From assembly GCA_031400935.1 (NCBI GenBank), contig JANNQV010000018.1, positions 62,001-126,000 on the forward strand: 64,000 nt of DNA, written 5' to 3'. Below, piece by piece: positions 12,717-43,915 of this stretch; position 1 is the first letter of the stretch; every line of letters starts with the position of its first letter. Source of the DNA: Armatimonadota bacterium (GTDB lineage Bacteria > Armatimonadota > Fimbriimonadia > Fimbriimonadales > Fimbriimonadaceae). A program made the position numbers and the translations under genes. The notes below the pieces were generated by a model. It was not told where the DNA came from, made no database searches, and saw only the letters and a list, made by a program, of their open reading frames with translations.

Positions 12717-14255
12717 CTACCGATTGGCCTGCAATCTAACTCGATTCTCCGCGACTCTCGTGATCGGCGAATTTGCCTTCACATAGTCAACCAGGATGTC
12801 TATGTCCAATAGCCCAGTGTCGTATCGGTAGCCCTTAGCAATTTTGAGAACCGTGTGCGCATCTCCGCCACCCGCTGTGAAATTGTTTAATGCGAGGCGG
12901 TAAGTCTTCCCTAATTGAATTGGACTTCCTCCCACAACGATATTTGCAACTCTCTGACCTGATGGTCTAGACATATCAATAAAGTAAGATGTCCCAGAAG
13001 ACGGGAGCAGCATCCCTCCCGAAATCTCGGTTCCCAGTGCAGGAGTTTCCAAAGCATCTTTCAATTCCTGTCCCGAAAGCTCTAGAATCATGAGAGTGTT
13101 TCGAAAAGGCTGGACTTCGTTCAGCTTGCCCAACGTGATGTCACCGGCATCAATTCCGGAACGCACGCCGCCGGTATTCATGAATGATGCAACTGCTCCA
13201 AATGCCTTTGCTGCTTCCTGCATCGCATCGGGAAGTAGCTCGCGCATGAGGCCGTTGCGATCCAAATTCACTTCTGTCTTGCCAATTTTCTGAAGCATCG
13301 TTGCGATGATCGGCTTTTGGAATGCAGCAATTAGGTTGGCGACTGTTGGATCGTCGGGGATTTTGTCGTCAACTACTATGGGTAAAGCGTCTCTCCATCC
13401 TGAAACTTGACCCCTGGAATCAAACTGAATTTTGATGTTGCCCAATATCTTTCCCCATTCCCAGCCTTGCAAAACTAGCGACCGTGAACCACCAACATGG
13501 TTGACAATGGTCGGATAAGGGCCAAGCGGAGTTGGCCAACCGTCTAGCTTGGGAAACGAAGGATTTGCCAAGAAGGAGTGGCTGTGCCCTCCGACGACCA
13601 CGTCTATTTCGGGGATTTTTGCAACGATTTCCCTTTCGAGTTCATATCCACAATGGCTGACTAAGAAAATCTTTGAAATCTTTGCGACTTTCAATTCAGA
13701 AACCGCTTGACTAATACTTGCGAAAAGCTCCTTCATTTTCACATGCTGGCCAATGTCGCTGATTGTCGGTAAATCGGGCGTCACAGCTCCAATAACTCCA
13801 ACTTTTTCCTTTCCCACATTGAGAATCGTCCAAGCTTTGATTCGATCTTTCAAATCTGGATCGTTGCTCACATCCAGGTTGGCTGCGAGCAATGGAAAGT
13901 TGGCACGTTTCACAAATTCTGAAAATGTCTTTGGGCCACGGTCGAACTCGTGATTTCCAACAGCAGCCGCCTGATATCCGACTTGATTCATAAACGCGAG
14001 GTCGCTCAAACCTTCGTATACATTGAAATATAGAGTTCCTTGGAACGTGTCTCCGCCGTTCAACAGCAAGAGATTCTTGTCTAATTTTCTGGCCTGATTG
14101 ATTAACGTGGCTTGACGCGCGTATCCGCCGTAGCTCTTTCCGCGAATCATGACTGGCTCAGCGTGTGAATGCAGGTCGTTTGTATGAAGCAAGGTGACTT
14201 CAAAATTGCCAACGAAGGCTGTGGCGGCAAGAAGAGAATTCAAAAGCGAGAGCAT
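12717..14255 (-). CDS. 5'-nucleotidase/UDP-sugar hydrolase (metallophosphoesterase plus C-terminal domain)
   Basis: HTNDLHSH, GDTFQG, GNHEFD, GGHSH, NTGGVR, PFRN. Start MLSLL preferred over track start 14282. Confidence 0.92.
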   Translation of the reverse strand: MLSLLNSLLAATAFVGNFEVTLLHTNDLHSHAEPVMIRGKSYGGYARQATLINQARKLDKNLLLLNGGDTFQGTLYFNVYEGLSDLAFMNQVGYQAAAVGNHEFDRGPKTFSEFVKRANFPLLAANLDVSNDPDLKDRIKAWTILNVGKEKVGVIGAVTPDLPTISDIGQHVKMKELFASISQAVSELKVAKISKIFLVSHCGYELEREIVAKIPEIDVVVGGHSHSFLANPSFPKLDGWPTPLGPYPTIVNHVGGSRSLVLQGWEWGKILGNIKIQFDSRGQVSGWRDALPIVVDDKIPDDPTVANLIAAFQKPIIATMLQKIGKTEVNLDRNGLMRELLPDAMQEAAKAFGAVASFMNTGGVRSGIDAGDITLGKLNEVQPFRNTLMILELSGQELKDALETPALGTEISGGMLLPSSGTSYFIDMSRPSGQRVANIVVGGSPIQLGKTYRLALNNFTAGGGDAHTVLKIAKGYRYDTGLLDIDILVDYVKANSPITRVAENRVRLQANR

Positions 14256-14275
14256 GTGGATTGTATACCCAAAAC

Positions 14276-14436
14276 GGGTCATTGGGTCATTGGGTGAGTT
14301 GGGTGAAATGAGTGACTTGGGAGATTTGAATTGAAAACTGAATAGTCAATCCAGATCCAGAAAATCAGTTCTGAAATTGAATCAGCAAATCGCCTGGTGC
14401 CCCCAAGTCATACACTTCACGCCTATCACCCAAGTC
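14276..14436. repeat. Degenerate 8/9-mer tandem repeats (GGGTCATT / GGGTGAxxT) with inverted counterparts
   Basis: gggtcattgggtcattgggtgagttgggtgaaatgagtgacttggg and tcacccaagtca. The same units occur at 14670-14735, 19624-19695, 29841-29880 and 51116-51136. Confidence 0.7.
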
Positions 14437-14444
14437 AAAAATTG

Positions 14445-14517
14445 TGGGCCTGGCGGGACTCGAACCCGCGGCCGAACGGTTATGAGCCGTCCGCTCTAAC
14501 CACTGAGCTACAGGCCC
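14445..14517 (-). tRNA. tRNA with CAT anticodon, most likely tRNA-Ile2 (lysidine); CCA not encoded
   Basis: GGGCCTGTAGCTCAGTGGTTAGAGCG-GACGG-CTCATAA-CCGTT...GGTTCGAGTCCC-GCCAGGCCCA. G1-C72 is paired and there is no GGG/CCC anticodon stem, so it is not initiator tRNA. Confidence 0.92.
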
Positions 14518-14738: not shown

Positions 14739-15140
14739 TCACACATCCGGCCCCCGAATCTCAAACCTAGTCTGTCCGATCACGTCGCCGTTGTAAAGCA
14801 AGTCGAATCGAAAGGCCCCAGGCGACGGAATTTCTCTTTCGACACAGACTCTAAACCAAGAATAAACGTTGCTTGGCAGCATATCCGGGCGGCGATGAAC
14901 TTCGAGACTAAGTTCGTTTCGATAATAAACCTGCCCATCAGCATCCACCATTTGCAAAGTCATTTCGTGAATTCGGTCGCCTTCAAAAGGGTCGCATTCG
15001 ATTTCGATTGCCACATAAAACGGGTCTAGACGAGCTGGGAATTCATGTGAGCCAATAACCCGAAATACCCCAGCCAAAACCGGCGCACCAGTGGCCAATT
15101 GGGACGCATATTCGCACAATAATAGAAATCCGACTTGCAC
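14739..15140 (-). CDS. Hypothetical protein (DUF6941-like)
   Basis: FLLLCEYA...GVF...FPA...PGAFRF pattern. Confidence 0.6.
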   Translation of the reverse strand: MQVGFLLLCEYASQLATGAPVLAGVFRVIGSHEFPARLDPFYVAIEIECDPFEGDRIHEMTLQMVDADGQVYYRNELSLEVHRRPDMLPSNVYSWFRVCVEREIPSPGAFRFDLLYNGDVIGQTRFEIRGPDV

Positions 15141-15745: not shown

Positions 15746-15858
15746 CAAAGTGCGGGCGTGCCCTGGAGCGCGGGCGCCTCGCCCGTATCTGTGCTCCGGA
15801 CGTCTCGTCGGGTGAAGCTTATTTTCAATATTCCAACAACATGGAACATAATTGACAA

Positions 15859-17001
15859 ATGGCATTGATTCACTTCCTAGCACTAAGCGGAATTTTTGGA
15901 CATAACTCCAGCGACATAGATTCCAAAATTGCAGCAGTCTTGCCAACAGCAGAAGAAAACCGCTGGCTTGAAATCCCCTGGCGACTCGACCTTGGAGTGG
16001 CCAGAAAGGAAGCCGCGGAATCAAAAAAACCGCTTTTCATTTGGATGATGAACGGCCATCCAATGGGCTGTACGTGAAACAACGGACTTTGGGACCGGCG
16101 GTTCCTCTTTAGCAATCCAACTATCAGCAAGCGATTGCGCGAGCAATTTATACCTGTCGTGGGAAACACCCACGAGCTACAAAATGGCAGGAGCGATGCC
16201 AGAAATTGGTTTATGGCAGCTTCGGAGACTGTAAAGCCCGATGTAAAGAGCGGTAGTACTGCCCAAGGCTTTTATGTAATGACGGCAAGTGGAAGAGCAC
16301 TTGGATTTAACAACAATCGAAGCGTCGAGCGAGTTTTGCAACTAATGGATCGGGGGTTGGCAGCGTTCAAGCCTGAAACAGAGCCTAAGCCCGAAGATCT
16401 GCCGAAATGGGAATCAAAGCATTACGGACCAGAACCAACAACTTCGATTCTGCGAATTTTCGCTCGGGTTAAACCCAAAGTCGAAGGAGCCGATCCAGCA
16501 AACGATAACGTTGCGCAAGATCATGTCTGGTTTCTCAAATCGGAGATTCAGTCGCTCGTTGAATCTGGCTCATTGCCGGATTCAGCCACAAATCGCCTGT
16601 TCCGGTTTGCGTTTGTTGATAATGTTCGGGGTGAACCTGATCATTGGCAGCCAGGTGAAGTTAAAACAGCAATTCTCGATTTCAAAAGGGTCATCGAATT
16701 GGAAGGCAAAGTCACATTTGCCATAAGTGGACAATTCGCGATGGCTACTGCAAACGGACTGCGTGGGCTAGAAGGAACTCTAGAAGGTCGGGTTGTCGTG
16801 GATCGAAATGAATCAAAAGTTAGTGAGTGCAGAATCTATTCAGCAGCCAAGGCATGGGGACGGAGCACATACACTCCAAACCCGCCCGCCGGAAAATTTC
16901 CAATGGTATTCGCAATTGTTGAAACCAATGACGAAATATCGAAAGTTGTTCCGCCTCAGGCAATTTTTCATGGTTCGGAATATTTCAATCCTAAGCGTTA
17001 G
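15859..17001 (+). CDS. Candidate selenoprotein, thioredoxin-like fold (about 380 aa; in-frame TGA 16075-16077 = U73)
   Basis: Track ORFs 15859-16077 and 16135-17001 are in the same frame with a single TGA between them. The Trx motif continues across it: KPLFIWMMNGHPMGCT-U-NNGLWDRRFLFSNPTISKRLREQFIPV. The paralog at 42731 has the TGA at the same position. Confidence 0.8.
16091..16105 (+). promoter_or_regulatory. Putative bacterial SECIS hairpin
   Basis: GGGACC-GGC-GGTTCC stem-loop starting 13 nt after the TGA, with G in the loop. Confidence 0.5.
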
Positions 17002-17007
17002 CACTAG

Positions 17008-17838
17008 TTACTTTAGCCCACCCAGCGTTACGCCTTTTACAAAGTAACGTTGCGTGGCAAGAAATACGACTACACATGGGATCATAACAATGAGCGCCGC
17101 AGCCATTTGCATCGGCCAGTTCGTACTTCCATAAGAGTTCTTGAACACGCTCAATCCGACTTCAAGTGTTCGCATTTGAACGAAAGATGTCGCCAAAAGC
17201 GGCCAAAAGAAATCTGTCCAAACTGCGAAGAAACTAAATGCAGAAGCCGTTGCCAGTGCAGCCTTGCTCAACGGCATTACAACCGACCAATAGATTCGAA
17301 ATTCACTAGCGCCGTCAATTCGGGCGGCTTCGCTTAGCTCGTTTGGAATCTGGGCAAAGAACTGTCGAAGCAAGAAGATGGAAAACGCGCTGCTGAGTCC
17401 TGGAACGATTAGCGCTACATAGGAGTCGAGCCAACCAAACGATCGAACCATTAGAAAAACCGGAATCTGGGTGACAGTTCCGCCGAACATCATGCTGAGC
17501 AAGAATGCTGTGAAAAGGGCGTCTCGCCCTTTGAATTTGAGTCTTGAGAATCCATAAGCCGCCAAACTGCTGACAAATAACTGGCCCAAAACTACCACGA
17601 TGGCGATAAAAACAGAATTTAGGAAGAATCGAAATACGGGGAGTTCTGGCATGAAAAGCACTGTCGCGAAATTTTCCCAATGTACTGTTTCGGGAACTAG
17701 CTTGTCCAAAGTTGGAATTGCAGTTTTCGTTTCTTGAAGAGAAACTAAGACCATCCAAGCAAAGGGAGCTAACATAAATAGTCCGAGACCGATCAATAGC
17801 GAATAAGTTGCAACTATTTTAAGAACTTTGCGAATCAT
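17008..17838 (-). CDS. Carbohydrate ABC transporter permease (MalG-like)
   Basis: EAARIDGAS EAA loop. Start MIRKV overlaps the upstream stop (track start 17958). Confidence 0.92.
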   Translation of the reverse strand: MIRKVLKIVATYSLLIGLGLFMLAPFAWMVLVSLQETKTAIPTLDKLVPETVHWENFATVLFMPELPVFRFFLNSVFIAIVVVLGQLFVSSLAAYGFSRLKFKGRDALFTAFLLSMMFGGTVTQIPVFLMVRSFGWLDSYVALIVPGLSSAFSIFLLRQFFAQIPNELSEAARIDGASEFRIYWSVVMPLSKAALATASAFSFFAVWTDFFWPLLATSFVQMRTLEVGLSVFKNSYGSTNWPMQMAAALIVMIPCVVVFLATQRYFVKGVTLGGLK

Positions 17839-18719
17839 GCCGCTGCATCCTCCATTCTGGATTTCATCAATCGGTATTGAATGATTGCCACGACCAAAAT
17901 CGCTAGCAATAGCAGAAACGATTGAGCGGAAGCCGAGCCCACATGAAATCGTCGCCAAGCTTCGTTGTAAATGTGATAGCCTACAACATCGGTAGAATCC
18001 ATCGGCCCACCTTTCGTCATCATGTATATTGGTGTGAAAACCTGAAAAGCGCTAATGGTGGACGTAACCAAGACAAACAAAGTTGTGGGAGTTAACATTG
18101 GCAATGTGATCCGCCAAAAACTTCGCCATCGCGAAGTGCCATCCAGCTCAGCGGCTTCATAAAGTGAAGGATCTATTACTACCAAACCCGCTAGAAAAAG
18201 CACCATTCTAGGGCCTAAACCTGTCCATATTGACATGAACACAAGTGCCCACATTGCAAATGGCACTTCGTTCAAGAAGTCCGTTTTGCCTTCGAATCCG
18301 AATACTTTTACAATTGAGTTAATGAGTCCGGATTCGGGCAAAAACACATAAATCCATAGCATCGAAATGGCAACACCAGAACTAATAGCTGGCAAATAGA
18401 AAAGCGTTCGGAAGACTGCCATTCCTCTGATTTTTTGATTTACAAGCAATGCAACTGCAAGGGCGACTATCATTCCTAATGGCACACCGGTTATTGCGTA
18501 ACGTGCAGAATTCCACATCGCATTCCAAAAGTTTGAATCTGCGAGCGTTTCTGAGTAGTTCTGTAATCCTACGAATGGACGAGAATCCTTTAGAAGATTC
18601 CAATCGTGAAAGCTAAGCCAGAGTGCATAGCCAATGGGGACAAGAGCGAATAGTAGTAAGTGCGCCGTCGCCGGGGCGACGAAAAACCAGCCCACTTTTC
18701 CACGCATTTTGACCCTCAC
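17835..18719 (-). CDS. Carbohydrate ABC transporter permease (MalF-like)
   Basis: LYEAAELDG, ITLPMLTP, MTKGGP; start may be 18707. Confidence 0.92.
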   Translation of the reverse strand: MRVKMRGKVGWFFVAPATAHLLLFALVPIGYALWLSFHDWNLLKDSRPFVGLQNYSETLADSNFWNAMWNSARYAITGVPLGMIVALAVALLVNQKIRGMAVFRTLFYLPAISSGVAISMLWIYVFLPESGLINSIVKVFGFEGKTDFLNEVPFAMWALVFMSIWTGLGPRMVLFLAGLVVIDPSLYEAAELDGTSRWRSFWRITLPMLTPTTLFVLVTSTISAFQVFTPIYMMTKGGPMDSTDVVGYHIYNEAWRRFHVGSASAQSFLLLLAILVVAIIQYRLMKSRMEDAAA

Positions 18720-41798: not shown

Positions 41799-42668
41799 AT
41801 GGCCACCCTCAAGCAACTTAGACAACGCATAAAGACAGCGAAGAACATCCAGCAGATTACGCGGGCGATGAAGCTGGTTGCCGCTGCCAGGTTCAAAAAG
41901 GCAACCGATAGGGTGCTGGAAGCACGACCATATTCTGACAAGCTCAAAGAATTTATGATGTCCTTGAGCGGTTCAGGCGATCTGCCAACTCACCCAATGA
42001 TGCAAAATCGCAGCGGCGACAACTATGCGCTGATCCTTATTAGTGCAGAACGCGGACTAGCTGGTTCGTTCAACACCAACCTGATTAGAAGGGCTGGAGA
42101 TTTTATGAAGGAGCAGTCTGGCGATGGCCAACTGATCACCGTCGGGAAGAAAGGCTACGGCTTCTTCAGCAAACGCGGCTATAAGATGACGCATCACGTT
42201 ACAGTTGCAAGCGCTGGAGCAACACTCGCCGACGCCCAAGACGTTGCTGGAGTCGCTCGTCAGCTTTTTGAATCTGGCGAGATAGACAAGCTTTACGTTT
42301 GCTATAGCAAATTCTTTTCAGCGATTCGCCAAGTTCCGACGATTGTGCAAATTCTGCCAATCGAACCACCCAAAGCTGACGAAACCAAACCTTCTGGTGA
42401 AGGTAAGTCCGACTACATTTTTGAACCCGACGCCGAAGGCGTTTTGAACCAGCTTCTGCCACGCTATTTCTTCACTCTAATCTGGCAAGCGCTCTTGGAA
42501 TCTACGGCGAGCGAATTCGGCTCCCGAATGACCGCAATGACAAGCGCGACCGACAACGCGGGCAAGATGATCCAAGAGCTTTCGCTTAAAGCGAACCGCA
42601 CACGCCAAGCTGGAATTACGACGGAGATTCTCGAAGTCGTCGGTGGCGCTGAAGCTCTGAATGGCTAA
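41799..42668 (+). CDS. atpG: F1 ATP synthase subunit gamma
   Basis: ITRAMKLVAAA, RGLAGSFN, RMTAM, RQAGITTEILE. Confidence 0.97.
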   Translation: MATLKQLRQRIKTAKNIQQITRAMKLVAAARFKKATDRVLEARPYSDKLKEFMMSLSGSGDLPTHPMMQNRSGDNYALILISAERGLAGSFNTNLIRRAGDFMKEQSGDGQLITVGKKGYGFFSKRGYKMTHHVTVASAGATLADAQDVAGVARQLFESGEIDKLYVCYSKFFSAIRQVPTIVQILPIEPPKADETKPSGEGKSDYIFEPDAEGVLNQLLPRYFFTLIWQALLESTASEFGSRMTAMTSATDNAGKMIQELSLKANRTRQAGITTEILEVVGGAEALNG

Positions 42669-42730: not shown

Positions 42731-43915
42731 ATGCTGCCAATCGCAATTCTTGTGGCATCGTTAGTTCAGACTCAAGGGCTCGACCCGACAGCGGCGAACT
42801 TCGAATCGCTCCTCAAATTCATCCAGCCTGATGCAAAAGAACAAGCCTATAAAGAAATCTCGTGGAGAAACGAGTTTTGGCCCGCTGTATTAGAAGCAAA
42901 GCGATTGGGCCGCCCAATCTTCTTTTGGACGATGAACGGGCATCCGCTCGGCTGCACGTGAAACAACGGCGTCCGAGGACGCCAATTGGTCTGGTCAGAC
43001 CCTGAAATCAAGAAACTTAGCCGCGAATTTGTAACAGCTGCTGACGAAGTCTACATGCTATATCCTGAAGATCCGGGCAATCTAAATCGTGTCAAAGACC
43101 GCCCGGAACATCAGTTTTTCAAGAAATATGGTGAGGCGATGCCGCCTGGAGCCTGGCACCATCCCGGAACCAAGCAAGGCATCTACATGATCGGCCCAAA
43201 TGCGGAGTACTTAGAAGGGCGATTCGCTGCTTCGGGGGATGCTAGCGACATCCGTTCCCGAATGCAAACGGCTTTGCGAAAATGGGAAACACTTCGCAAG
43301 GAACAAGGCTACGCCAATCAGCCCGTTCCCGCAGTTACGTGGTCGCCTCCTCCAGGAATTTCTGGTGAACTGATTCTTCGTGTCAATATTCGTGATCTGC
43401 CTCGAGGGCCAGGCGATAAGAGCGGAGCGAGATTCGATGAGGTAGCAGGAAATCGTGAGGTCTTTCCCGACTATGTGAAATGGGCGTGGAACGAGAACTG
43501 GTTCGGGGCAGACCAAGCCCGCGCATTCGTCCCATCTGGAACAACTCGCGAGGAAGTCCCAACTGCCGTAGTTAGCCGCATGTGCCAAATTGTAATTGTG
43601 GACAATGTTCGGGGCCAAGCCGACAGATGGAGACCCGATGAAGTCAAAGAAGCTACGATCACTAAGCGATCTTTGGGCACTTCCGGTGGAGTTATGCAAA
43701 TTGAATATGGCGGTCGAATATCACTTGCCAGCGGTTCGCGTTCCATTGAAGGCAAACTCTTTGGTAAAGGCGAATGGGACGAGAAAAGGGGCGAGTTCAG
43801 AAGCCTGGACCTTTTGGTTGCTGCAATGAGGCGCGGAGCATCACGGTTTAACCGGCGGGAGAGCGATCCGGGTCCAGCACCGATAGGATTTTCGTTGGCA
43901 CTTCATAAACGGTAG
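42731..43915 (+). CDS. Candidate selenoprotein paralog 2, thioredoxin-like fold (about 394 aa; in-frame TGA 42959-42961 = U77)
   Basis: Track ORFs 42731-42961 and 42986-43915 are in one frame: RPIFFWTMNGHPLGCT-U-NNGVRGRQLVWSDPEIKKLSREFV. Shares QGxY and VDNVRG..D.W.P.EVK with paralog 1. Confidence 0.8.
42968..42983 (+). promoter_or_regulatory. Putative bacterial SECIS hairpin
   Basis: GGCGTC-CGAG-GACGCC perfect stem starting 6 nt after the TGA. Confidence 0.45.

Follow-up and report, generated by a model that had tools for sequence, protein, structure and literature searches.

A probable selenoprotein with a Cys-x-Sec-Asn-Asn-Gly thioredoxin-fold site, split by an in-frame TGA in an Armatimonadota genome

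Selenoproteins built on the thioredoxin fold are already known. Among the described systems is the Trx7/PDZ (seleno)protein NF041199, in which a Thioredoxin_7-like part with a CxxU motif (Sec in the second position) is followed by a C-terminal PDZ domain. The DsbD-gamma, Thioredoxin_7 and DsbH-like proteins (3f9u, 1vrs, 2ju5 and 3ira, together with AGR3, 3ph9), which belong to the envelope or the secretory pathway, carry a C-x-x-C motif instead. The iodothyronine deiodinases are likewise selenoproteins of thioredoxin fold in which Sec stands at the start of helix alpha1; the animal enzymes have a Cys two residues ahead of it (S-C-T-U). For a deiodinase-like family, a 2026 review gives UxxC as the Sec-related motif, and the same review lists the VPGUxxT family (NCBIfam NF041383 for type 2, NF041382 for type 1) in its table as 'hypothetical protein OS_HP5'. 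The gene described here lies in a stretch of 64,000 nucleotides from an Armatimonadota bacterium, analysed as a whole and called the window below; it belongs to a large family that seems to have gone unnoticed so far. Its features are collected in Table 1.

Table 1. Features of the candidate selenoprotein gene, in positions of the window
Feature	Positions	Strand	Basis or remark
Whole selenoprotein gene	15859..17001	+	380 codons plus TAG stop, one TGA inside; frame, alignment, single AlphaFold model
Short hydrophobic N-terminus MALIHFLALSGIFG, putative signal peptide without charged n-region	15859..15900	+	Reading of the sequence; suggested by homologues
Thioredoxin-fold domain (about residues 28-175), DsbD-gamma/Thioredoxin_7-like	15940..16383	+	Secondary structure, fold comparison, profile match
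Active-site motif N-G-H-P-M-G-C-T-U-N-N-G (residues 65-76)	16051..16086	+	Between strand beta1 and helix alpha1
Cys71 codon TGT	16069..16071	+	Two residues ahead of Sec; proposed resolving partner
In-frame TGA, probably read as selenocysteine (U73)	16075..16077	+	Conservation, SelA co-occurrence, Cys pairing, profile alignment
SECIS-like stem-loop	16084..16118	+	Within the four bSECIS constraints; synonymous-recoding test
C-terminal beta-rich domain (about residues 190-380)	16426..16998	+	Model folded alone; conserved R203, D221, W224, D254-x-x-R-G258

The original prediction, made from the DNA letters, described two open reading frames in one frame that are separated only by a TGA, and the ORF reading of the window bears this out. 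The upstream ORF starts with ATG and ends at the TGA after 72 amino acids (15859-16077), and this is the single TGA that interrupts a frame otherwise open until the TAG at 16999-17001. A mechanical ORF search places the start of the downstream part at a TTG (16135, 288 aa), and the public gene call on the window DNA (P0002) is a piece of 262 aa, shorter even than that. When the TGA is read through, AlphaFold returns a single confident model (pLDDT 92.3, pTM 0.89), in which one thioredoxin fold spans the TGA without interruption at pLDDT > 90. The prediction also took TGA to be an ordinary stop in the rest of the window, and a partial check of this shows it terminating 5 of the 30 mechanical ORFs of at least 250 aa there. 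TGA also serves as the terminal stop of the same gene in several homologues. A scan for promoters and terminators found nothing exceeding shuffles.

The TGA is kept with little exception. In the 301 genomes of the phylum, 46 matches span residue 73; exactly one TGA is present in 44 of these and absent from two, and neither TAA nor TAG was seen in any of them. The homologues show no change of frame at this place either. All 28 phylum homologues that were extracted have the TGA in the same column, and so do all 23 rows of an alignment (A1) of the window sequence with 22 homologues, where residues are conserved both ahead of the TGA (P29, W41, P58) and beyond it (P191, R203). Since A1 keeps the TGA in one invariant column between two conserved flanks, the arrangement, as judged from the alignment, is not due to chance. 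The pairing of TGA with Cys among homologues, a mark of selenoproteins that had been proposed as a check, was also found. The Sec column is occupied by Cys in 12 of 27 full-length database relatives, and a TGA-free homologue from another genome of the phylum (G019) has Cys there as well (E-Y-S-C-A-N-S). None of the remaining 15 relatives has Cys or Sec there; the residue is D, A, S, G, R, N, E or Y, and the scaffold therefore also works without redox chemistry. The genome of the window itself contains three clear family members and two distant TGA-bearing relatives.

The machinery for selenocysteine, which the original prediction had named as the first thing to look for, is present in this same genome: profile matches over the curated cut-offs were obtained for SelA (385 bits), SelB (360 bits), SelD (354 bits, itself with 1 in-frame TGA) and tRNA-Sec (66 bits). 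Across the phylum, every genome with the TGA form of the family has a SelA match (31 of 31), compared with 164 of 301 genomes overall. In G019 and G152, whose family match is without TGA, no SelA match was found in either. On the evidence of these sequences, the TGA at 16075-16077 very probably encodes selenocysteine, and there is little doubt that the gene is a real selenoprotein gene.

A further mark of bacterial selenoproteins is a SECIS stem-loop closely downstream of the UGA, for which the published bSECIS model asks for a stem of 4-16 bp, a loop of 3-9 nt with G in its first two positions, a spacing of 16-37 nt and an MFE of at most -7.5. Such a hairpin follows the UGA in the window, with GGGACC (16091-16096) paired with GGUUCC (16100-16105) in the upper stem and GGC (16097-16099) as the apical loop, 19 nt from the UGA (-8.4 kcal/mol). 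The constraints are satisfied at all 28 homologue sites versus 1911 of 3257 in-gene control positions (59%), and under a stricter definition of the hairpin, chosen post hoc, at 26 of 28 versus 617 of 3257; P values for these comparisons overstate the case, because the stricter criteria were chosen post hoc and the homologues are kin. Compared with synonymous recodings, the stem-loop of the window is more stable (-6.2 versus -1.7+/-2.0 kcal/mol, p 0.047), and so are those of the 28 homologues (mean z -2.4, with p<=0.05 in 19). The hairpin of the window is nevertheless a weak one, the 60-nt fold being no better than shuffles (z +1.13). Stem sequences vary among the homologues while the location of the stem is constant. 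The register of the hairpin shifts by a few nt among homologues, and for this reason RNAalifold, applied to 21 codon-aligned stretches from beyond the TGA, found no consensus pairing; no alignment-wide covariation was obtained.

In the AlphaFold model a strand (residues 59-64) precedes the motif and a helix starts at residue 74. As in Thioredoxin_7 and DsbD-gamma proteins, the domain is a thioredoxin fold whose reactive residue, here the putative Sec, stands where helix alpha1 begins. Comparison of structures gave 3f9u as a match (Z 13.6, rmsd 3.0, 126 aligned), besides AGR3 3ph9 (Z 12.4), 2lst (11.2), 3ira (11.1) and DsbH 2ju5 (11.1), and Foldseek likewise matched 3f9u (E 2.8e-4). That the TGA takes the place of the nucleophilic Cys, the first of a CxxC motif, had been predicted and is supported by a profile alignment to 3f9u (C-V-N-C, E 4.5e-4); a second alignment, to 2lst (C-P-Y-C, E 0.93), lends weak support. 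In both, Sec lies on the first Cys and Gly76 on the second. The motif (C-T-U-N-N-G) thus has Gly76 in place of the second Cys of a C-x-x-C dithiol. No Pfam thioredoxin-family model was matched, either at threshold or at E<=1, and the sole Pfam row for the read-through protein at E<=1 (ESPR, 14.4 bits) is spurious. Within the motif, G66, P68, G70, C71, U73, N74 and N75 occur in 77 of 77 sequences, 59 of which came from a pattern search in which these very residues are prescribed. A Cys is found at -2 or -1 of Sec in all 28 phylum homologues; the -1 position is variable (T, V, G), and C and U are directly adjacent in distant members. The two distant TGA-bearing paralogues in this genome are without a neighbouring Cys (D-T-U and H-T-U).

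From these observations a mechanism can be proposed. SelB and Sec-tRNA(Sec) would decode the UGA, guided by the small hairpin downstream, and the 380-residue product would probably be exported. Sec73, standing at the start of helix alpha1 where CxxC proteins have their nucleophilic first Cys, would attack a substrate in the cell envelope that is oxidised or electrophilic; Cys71 may then resolve the adduct to form a Cys-x-Sec selenenylsulfide, to be re-reduced by another reductant, while the C-terminal beta-rich domain may hold the substrate or a partner. An exported selenoprotein of this kind, with Sec73/Cys71 redox chemistry at a thioredoxin fold, is on balance the likely overall explanation, and for the more specific proposition that the protein is an envelope redox enzyme working with a Cys-Sec pair the scales tip slightly in favour.

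The same site could also belong to a peroxidase of the GPx/Prx type, with Sec73 as the peroxidatic residue, Cys71 as the resolving one, and conserved polar residues as helpers; its envelope substrates would be hydroperoxides or further small oxidants, which it would reduce. Sec does occupy the position of the peroxidatic or nucleophilic residue in thioredoxin-fold enzymes, position +3 holds no second Cys (U-N-N-G), and the 77 sequences show no or almost no variation at Q136-G137, W41 and W62 (the last kept in 76 of 77), nor at N74 and N75, which the pattern fixes in 59 of them. The conserved Gln, Trp and Asn are reminiscent of the Sec/Gln/Trp/Asn tetrad of glutathione peroxidases. Yet the Pfam models for GPx, AhpC-TSA and Redoxin are all without a match at E<=1, the closest folds are DsbD-gamma, AGR and DsbH-like rather than Prx or GPx, and a small oxidant needs no extra domain of 200 residues, so that a peroxidase of this type seems unlikely.

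Export was put forward as a possibility in the original prediction, and it agrees with the signal-peptide-like N-termini of homologues, 59 of 75 of which have a hydrophobic run of at least 10 residues (an RR motif is present in 9). For the copy in the window, export is suggested by these relatives and stays uncertain, because its own N-terminus is a short hydrophobic one with no charged n-region. Some Ser/Thr kinases and anti-sigma factors of the FecR type end in a related module that follows a hydrophobic segment: the two-domain module is carried by the kinases P0126, P0127, P0129, P0134 and P0232 and by the anti-sigma factors P0163, P0172 and P0238, and P0210 joins it to an ECF sigma factor. 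In the kinases and anti-sigma factors the module is probably extracytoplasmic and mostly without Cys or Sec.

Such relatives lend some weight to the idea of an envelope selenoprotein for binding or sensing, whose Cys-x-Sec pair would hold a soft metal, a metalloid or another ligand without turnover. Selenocysteine is costly and usually reserved for catalysis, which speaks against this idea, as does the position of Sec in the thioredoxin fold, which is the classic catalytic one. The gene neighbourhood offers no metal-resistance or transport gene among conserved neighbours either; in a clustering of the 822 ORFs that flank 80 loci, the most widely shared neighbour occurred at 5 of the 80, without any operon clue. 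According to the 2026 review, the Sec residues of some families may be metal-binding ligands. With these points taken together, a binding protein is considered somewhat more doubtful than a peroxidase.

The large C-terminal domain that had been predicted is real and has no solved look-alike by Foldseek or VIA-align. Folded alone, it gives a model with seven long strands and helices at pLDDT 91.9. Foldseek against the PDB found no match at E<=1e-3, an absence that does not by itself make the fold new, and its top row is LolA (8cgm, E 0.012, probability 0.38); with VIA-align, the best Z was 6.2 (small outer-membrane barrels, rmsd > 3.8), which is within the noise band. The weak likeness to binders of hydrophobic ligands (LolA), the Sec at the start of helix alpha1 and the resemblance of G-C-T-U to S-C-T-U would fit a deiodinase-like enzyme whose C-terminal domain holds an aromatic compound while Sec73 takes a halogen off it. 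The resemblance to deiodinases noted in the original prediction stands as a local likeness of motifs and does not extend to the profile, since the deiodinase family of Pfam (PF00837) has no row for the read-through protein at E<=1. Moreover, the residue at -1 of Sec differs between members, some of which have C and U adjacent, and the likenesses of the C-terminal domain are within noise, making a deiodinase-like activity improbable.

The split of the gene has consequences far beyond the window. A superfamily profile collects 4,530 cluster representatives at E<=1e-3, and the DNA pattern [ND]-G-x-P-x-G-C-x-TGA-N-N is found at 120 loci or more, in at least 120 species genomes; the family profile matches all 120 of the pattern loci listed (E<=5e-28). 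Among the matches listed, homologues are commonest in Planctomycetota and Verrucomicrobiota; the pattern loci also include a complete genome titled 'Armatimonadetes bacterium Uphvl-Ar1' as well as Gemmata and Rhodopirellula relatives. In public annotation these genes are broken off at the TGA, and the proteomes concerned therefore hold a headless fragment labelled 'hypothetical'. Of the best 150 representatives, 123 begin at profile position 79-132, directly beyond the Sec column, and query coverage is at most 80% for all 120 near-length homologues listed. When the post-TGA part was used as query, the ESM Atlas returned unnamed Planctomycetota clusters without a Pfam family. That the TGA is instead a true stop in a split or decaying gene, or is read through by other means, is the least probable alternative of all, as the gene calls that treat it as a stop, the weak window hairpin and the other window ORFs ending in TGA are outweighed by the presence of just one TGA, and of neither TAA nor TAG, at this column in nearly all spanning matches and in at least 120 further species genomes from several phyla, by the inability of either piece alone to form the thioredoxin fold in the AlphaFold model, by strict co-occurrence with SelA, by Cys in the column where TGA is absent (in genomes and proteins alike) and by a hairpin stronger than synonymous recoding predicts.

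The family was predicted to be unannotated, and this holds for Pfam, NCBIfam release 20, the table of the 2026 review and further selenoprotein papers. In NCBIfam the read-through protein has no row at E<=0.01, and a limit of E<=10 adds a single faint one. The 119 selenoprotein families of the 2026 catalogue include nothing comparable. A Planctomycetes genome paper mentions one 'hypothetical' split selenoprotein candidate, not identified further there. The 'Sec.1' family of Secmarker (CxU) is a small Brachyspira PF13192 protein and is different from the family of the window. A family model would mend annotation in many genomes of Planctomycetota, Verrucomicrobiota and Armatimonadota and enlarge the known selenoproteomes, and the forms with Sec, the forms with Cys and the kinase- or anti-sigma-wired forms with neither make a natural series on the benefit of Sec in an envelope redox site. 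The odds are about even that the gene is the first example of a whole family of exported selenoproteins, large and so far missing from the catalogues, that combines a Cys-x-Sec-Asn-Asn-Gly thioredoxin fold and a beta-rich domain with an undescribed selenium reaction in the envelope and with redox-dead sensor relatives. If so, (i) the family would be spread across Planctomycetota, Verrucomicrobiota, Armatimonadota and other phyla, (ii) the selenium-dependent reaction in the envelope would be new, possibly deiodinase-like or peroxidase-like on a bound substrate, and (iii) Ser/Thr kinases and anti-sigma factors would have recruited the redox-dead relatives for use as sensor domains.

Set beside the described systems, the window protein resembles each in part. 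From the deiodinases it differs in domain architecture. With NF041199 it shares the plan of a Thioredoxin_7-like selenoprotein plus a C-terminal domain, and a distant relative (L044) faintly matches the first 25 positions of that profile (E 7.7e-4); the order of the motif and the nature of the extra domain differ, and the window protein itself has no row for this model and no PDZ match in Pfam. The likeness to VPGUxxT proteins (thioredoxin-like, about 290-350 residues, Sec at the redox site) is faint at the level of the profile, with residues 39-101 of the window protein (P0001) aligned to positions 5-63 (E 0.036, 13.7 bits), and clearer for the same distant relative (E 2.2e-6). What is shared is the first ~60 profile positions, i.e. 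the W..A..A....KP lead-in and the active site, whereas the score lies far under the cut-off of NF041383 (275 bits), NF041382 (cut-off 350) gives no row, the motif is G-C-T-U-N-N-G instead of V-P-G-U-x-x-T, and the C-terminal 280 residues align to neither model; no true VPGUxxT member was found in this genome. The DsbD-gamma, Thioredoxin_7 and DsbH-like proteins share the fold, the location of the reactive residue and an envelope or secretory setting with the window family, which departs from them in reading C-x-U-x-x-G for C-x-x-C, with Sec for the first Cys and Gly for the second, and in having a new Cys at -2 and an extra domain of 190 residues.

The gene consists of two ORFs in one frame with a TGA alone between them, as the original prediction had it, and reading through gives a protein of 380 residues with N-G-H-P-M-G-C-T-U-N-N-G around the TGA. 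A mechanical ORF downstream of the TGA starts at TTG 16135, and the public gene call for the same DNA (P0002, 262 residues, 100% identity over 69% of the query) starts later still. Just 5′ of the ATG, the TGA of a five-codon frame closes reading, which makes this ATG the first possible start. The gene stands by itself in the window. None of the neighbours there (5′-nucleotidase, tRNA-Met, DUF6941, permeases) recurs beside homologues elsewhere, and the neighbourhoods of homologues (80 loci) have no conserved neighbour, the most widely shared one being found in 5/80.

Coordinates of the gene, its neighbours and related loci (window positions, unless a contig of the source genome is named)
Feature	Position	Strand	Remarks
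Five-codon frame	15842-15856	+	M-E-H-N-TGA, in frame
ATG ORF	15859-16077	+	72 codons, closed by TGA 16075-16077
End of read-through frame	16999-17001	+	TAG
SECIS-like hairpin	16091-16105	+	stem GGGACC 16091-16096, loop GGC, GGUUCC 16100-16105; 19 nt past UGA; -8.4 kcal/mol including lower stem
5′-nucleotidase/metallophosphatase	12717-14282	-	PF02872, PF00149
tRNA-Met (CAU)	14444-14517	-	
DUF6941 protein	14739-15140	-	
164-residue ORF			upstream of the gene; no Pfam match
Two ABC-transporter permeases	17008-18719	-	PF00528; downstream, convergent
ORF adjoined on its 3′ side by second family member	41799-42668		
Second family member	42731-43915	+	394 residues; TGA about 42959-42961; N-G-H-P-L-G-C-T-U-N-N-G
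Third clear family member	C17, about 122579-123562	+	G-G-C-U-Q-N-G; 231 bits
selD (L009)	C15, 155711-156616	-	one in-frame TGA
Short frame (L052)	C58, 6046-6225	+	one TGA

Searching 301 genomes of the phylum with stops read through gave matches in 33, and residue 73 is spanned by 46 matches, of which 44 have exactly one TGA and two lack any stop, TAA and TAG being absent from all; in all 28 homologous frames extracted, TGA lies within the same motif. The TGA column is invariant in a 23-row alignment of the window protein and 22 homologues, with conserved residues both upstream (P29, W41, P58) and downstream (P191, R203). TGA also serves as the terminal stop of this gene in several homologues, so that recoding is confined to one position and does not reflect an altered genetic code; TGA likewise closes 5 of the 30 mechanical ORFs of at least 250 aa in the window, partly bearing out the earlier reading of it as an ordinary stop elsewhere. 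When the alignment profile was compared with 1.84 billion cluster representatives, 4,530 matched at E<=1e-3 (688 at E<=1e-30), and among the best 150 of these, 123 start at profile position 79-132, just after the Sec column, the mark left by gene calls truncated at TGA. The TGA/Cys pairing anticipated for this column is found in the 27 full-length sequences among the best 150, which have Cys there in 12 cases (otherwise D 5, A 2, S 2, G 2, R 1, N 1, E 1, Y 1), with a second Cys kept at -2 or -3 in 8 of the 12. On all lines of evidence, those below included, we are highly confident that the gene encodes a real selenoprotein.

The source genome (2.97 Mb, 67 contigs, 95.6% complete) contains the Sec machinery for which the original prediction proposed to look, with SelA (385 bits), SelB (360 bits), SelD (354 bits) and tRNA-Sec (66 bits) all above curated cut-offs; the in-frame TGA of selD marks its product as a Sec-form selenophosphate synthetase. 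A SelA match is present in 31/31 genomes with a TGA-bearing match (weak in one of them, G268, E 5.6e-8) versus 164/301 overall; as the genomes are kin, we treat this as a pattern rather than a statistic. G019 and G152, where the only match is one without the TGA, both lack a SelA match, and G019 has Cys in the Sec column.

The bacterial SECIS model in section 5 of a 2026 review specifies an apical loop of 3-9 nt with G within the first two positions, a stem of 4-16 bp, a UGA-to-loop distance of 16-37 nt and an MFE <= -7.5 kcal/mol. A hairpin of this kind, another of the proposed checks, follows the UGA (see table), and the model is satisfied by 28/28 homologues, though also by 1,911/3,257 in-gene control positions (59%); tighter, post hoc criteria (spacing 16-25 nt, stem of at least 5 bp) retain 26/28 homologues versus 617/3,257 controls (19%). 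Under a fairer control, with the protein sequence fixed and synonymous codons redrawn, the natural stem-loops are more stable than the recodings (mean z -2.4; p<=0.05 in 19/28), the window's own reaching -6.2 versus -1.7+/-2.0 kcal/mol (p 0.047). By contrast, the fold of 60 nt in the window does not beat shuffled sequence (z +1.13), and RNAalifold gives no consensus pairs for the homologues because the hairpin register shifts among them; the stem sequences vary while their place is kept (GGGACC/GGUUCC, UUGGAC/GUCCAA, GGGGGCG/CGCCCUC, CCAGACG/CGUCUGG).

AlphaFold2 on the alignment yields a single confident model across the TGA (pLDDT 92.3, pTM 0.89), in which residues 28-175 are a thioredoxin fold. 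Their best structural match is 3f9u (Z 13.6, rmsd 3.0, 126 residues), the C-terminal domain of a DsbD-like exported protein, followed by AGR3 (Z 12.4), Thermus thioredoxin 2lst (11.2), 3ira (11.1) and DsbH 2ju5 (11.1). By sequence, the profile matches 3f9u (E 4.5e-4), with 2lst a weak second (E 0.93), and in both the Sec column aligns to the first Cys of C-x-x-C, the nucleophilic position originally proposed, and Gly76 to the second (C-V-N-C in 3f9u; C-P-Y-C in the weak match). The reactive site is thus C71-T-U73-N-N-G76, with Sec73 immediately before helix 74-83 and after strand 59-64 in the model; compared with C-x-x-C, Sec takes the nucleophilic position, the canonical resolving Cys is absent and there is a new Cys at -2. 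All 28 phylum homologues have a Cys at -2 (G-C-[TVG]-U-N-N) or -1 (H-C-U-Q-N-G, R-C-U-G, P-C-U-[VA]-G-G). Two distant TGA-bearing paralogues in the genome, on contigs C61 and C17 (-), have D-T-U and H-T-U with no neighbouring Cys (G-D-T-U-S-A-G, E 3e-9; G-H-T-U-A-N-M, E 2e-7), and contig C50 holds one relative lacking the TGA. Across 77 members of the G-C-x-U-N-N clade, with pattern-forced positions set aside, W41, P58, M64, Q136-G137, D254 and G258 are present in 77/77, and W62 and W224 in 76/77 each. The large C-terminal domain foreseen from the sequence is borne out, as residues 190-380 modelled alone (pLDDT 91.9) show seven long strands plus helices; against solved structures Foldseek gives no match at E<=1e-3 and the best VIA match reaches Z 6.2. 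The domain thus lacks a convincing solved counterpart, which does not in itself prove a new fold.

The product is very probably a real thioredoxin-fold selenoprotein, and it is probably exported. By a crude measure (not a predictor), 59/75 homologues with a usable N-terminus have an N-terminal hydrophobic run of at least 10 residues and 9/75 an RR motif, perhaps a Tat signal, suggesting that most begin with an ordinary signal peptide. The homologues thereby support the suggestion of possible export. The Armatimonadota copies, including the window's, have only a short, hydrophobic, uncharged N-terminus, so that export of the window copy is inferred.

The protein combines a thioredoxin fold, Sec in the nucleophile's place and an adjacent Cys. 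In the mechanism that we favour as a whole, with moderate confidence, Sec73 would attack an envelope substrate that is oxidised or electrophilic, Cys71 would resolve the adduct to a Cys-x-Sec selenenylsulfide, a further reductant would re-reduce this, and the C-terminal domain would hold substrate or partner. That the same Sec serves a GPx/Prx-type peroxidase is unlikely, and slightly more doubtful is a binding or sensing protein in which Cys-x-Sec would be a soft-ligand site. A deiodinase-like dehalogenase is improbable, and a split gene or other kind of read-through, at a codon that is never TAA or TAG, hardly credible.

A DNA search with a degenerate form of the motif finds at least 120 loci in the species-genome collection, and the family profile matches 120/120 loci among the matches listed (weakest E 4.5e-28). 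By record title (binning errors may affect some MAG labels), the 80 titled records among the matches listed comprise Planctomycetota (50), Verrucomicrobiota or Kiritimatiellia (16), Armatimonadota (4), Latescibacterota (2), one each of Gemmatimonas, Neomarinimicrobiota, Omnitrophota, Actinomycetota and Paracoccaceae, and three with no phylum in the title. The same pair of domains, in most cases with neither Cys nor Sec at the reactive column, also forms the C-terminal part of Ser/Thr kinases (P0126, P0127, P0129, P0134, P0232), of FecR-type anti-sigma factors (P0163, P0172, P0238) and of an ECF-sigma fusion (P0210); this fits a module facing the envelope, and resembles a redox-dead version put to new use as a sensor domain. 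Three loci in other genomes (L044, L046 and L047, in G110, G077 and G164) differ in architecture: a membrane-like N-terminal region of ~240 residues precedes a thioredoxin-like domain with P-C-U-[VA]-G-G-T, and the beta-rich C-terminal domain is missing.

Against known families, Pfam yields nothing for the read-through protein at E<=1 except one spurious row, and NCBIfam release 20 nothing at E<=0.01. At E<=10 NCBIfam gives one faint row, NF041383 (VPGUxxT thioredoxin-like (seleno)protein type 2), limited to the first ~60 profile positions; at 13.7 bits against a cut-off of 275, we take it for distant relatedness inside the Thioredoxin_7-like clade and not for membership. Distant kin do slightly better (E 2.2e-6) and also touch the Trx7/PDZ selenoprotein model, L044, L046 and L047 being the top scorers against NF041383 among the sequences tested (E 2e-6 to 5e-5). 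The source genome has no true VPGUxxT member; its short frame L052, with a faint VPGUxxT type 1 match (E 0.0015), may be another small thioredoxin-like selenoprotein.

Table 1 of the 2026 review, with 119 prokaryotic selenoprotein families and subfamilies, contains no C-x-U-N-N-G thioredoxin-fold family; nearly all its families have a Pfam or NCBIfam identifier, and the read-through protein matches none of those models. BSepDB describes 111 families and subfamilies drawn from previously reported ones; the passages of the GOS paper that were compared contain no thioredoxin-like C-x-U family, and the Secmarker 'Sec.1' family is a small Brachyspira protein. A full-text search for selenoproteins of Armatimonadetes, or of Planctomycetes/Verrucomicrobia with SECIS, returned only a Planctomycetes genome paper, whose Table S9 lists one unidentified 'hypothetical' split candidate. 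The family is uncatalogued in Pfam, NCBIfam and Table 1, and may stand under a different name in InterPro, CDD or PANTHER, in the supplements of the review or BSepDB, or in the groundwater-MAG study cited by the review. Both the original observation and its interpretation as an unannotated Sec-containing family are upheld, and the family is large, systematically mis-annotated and, within the resources compared, uncatalogued: the kind of protein is known, while its motif, architecture and family appear new.
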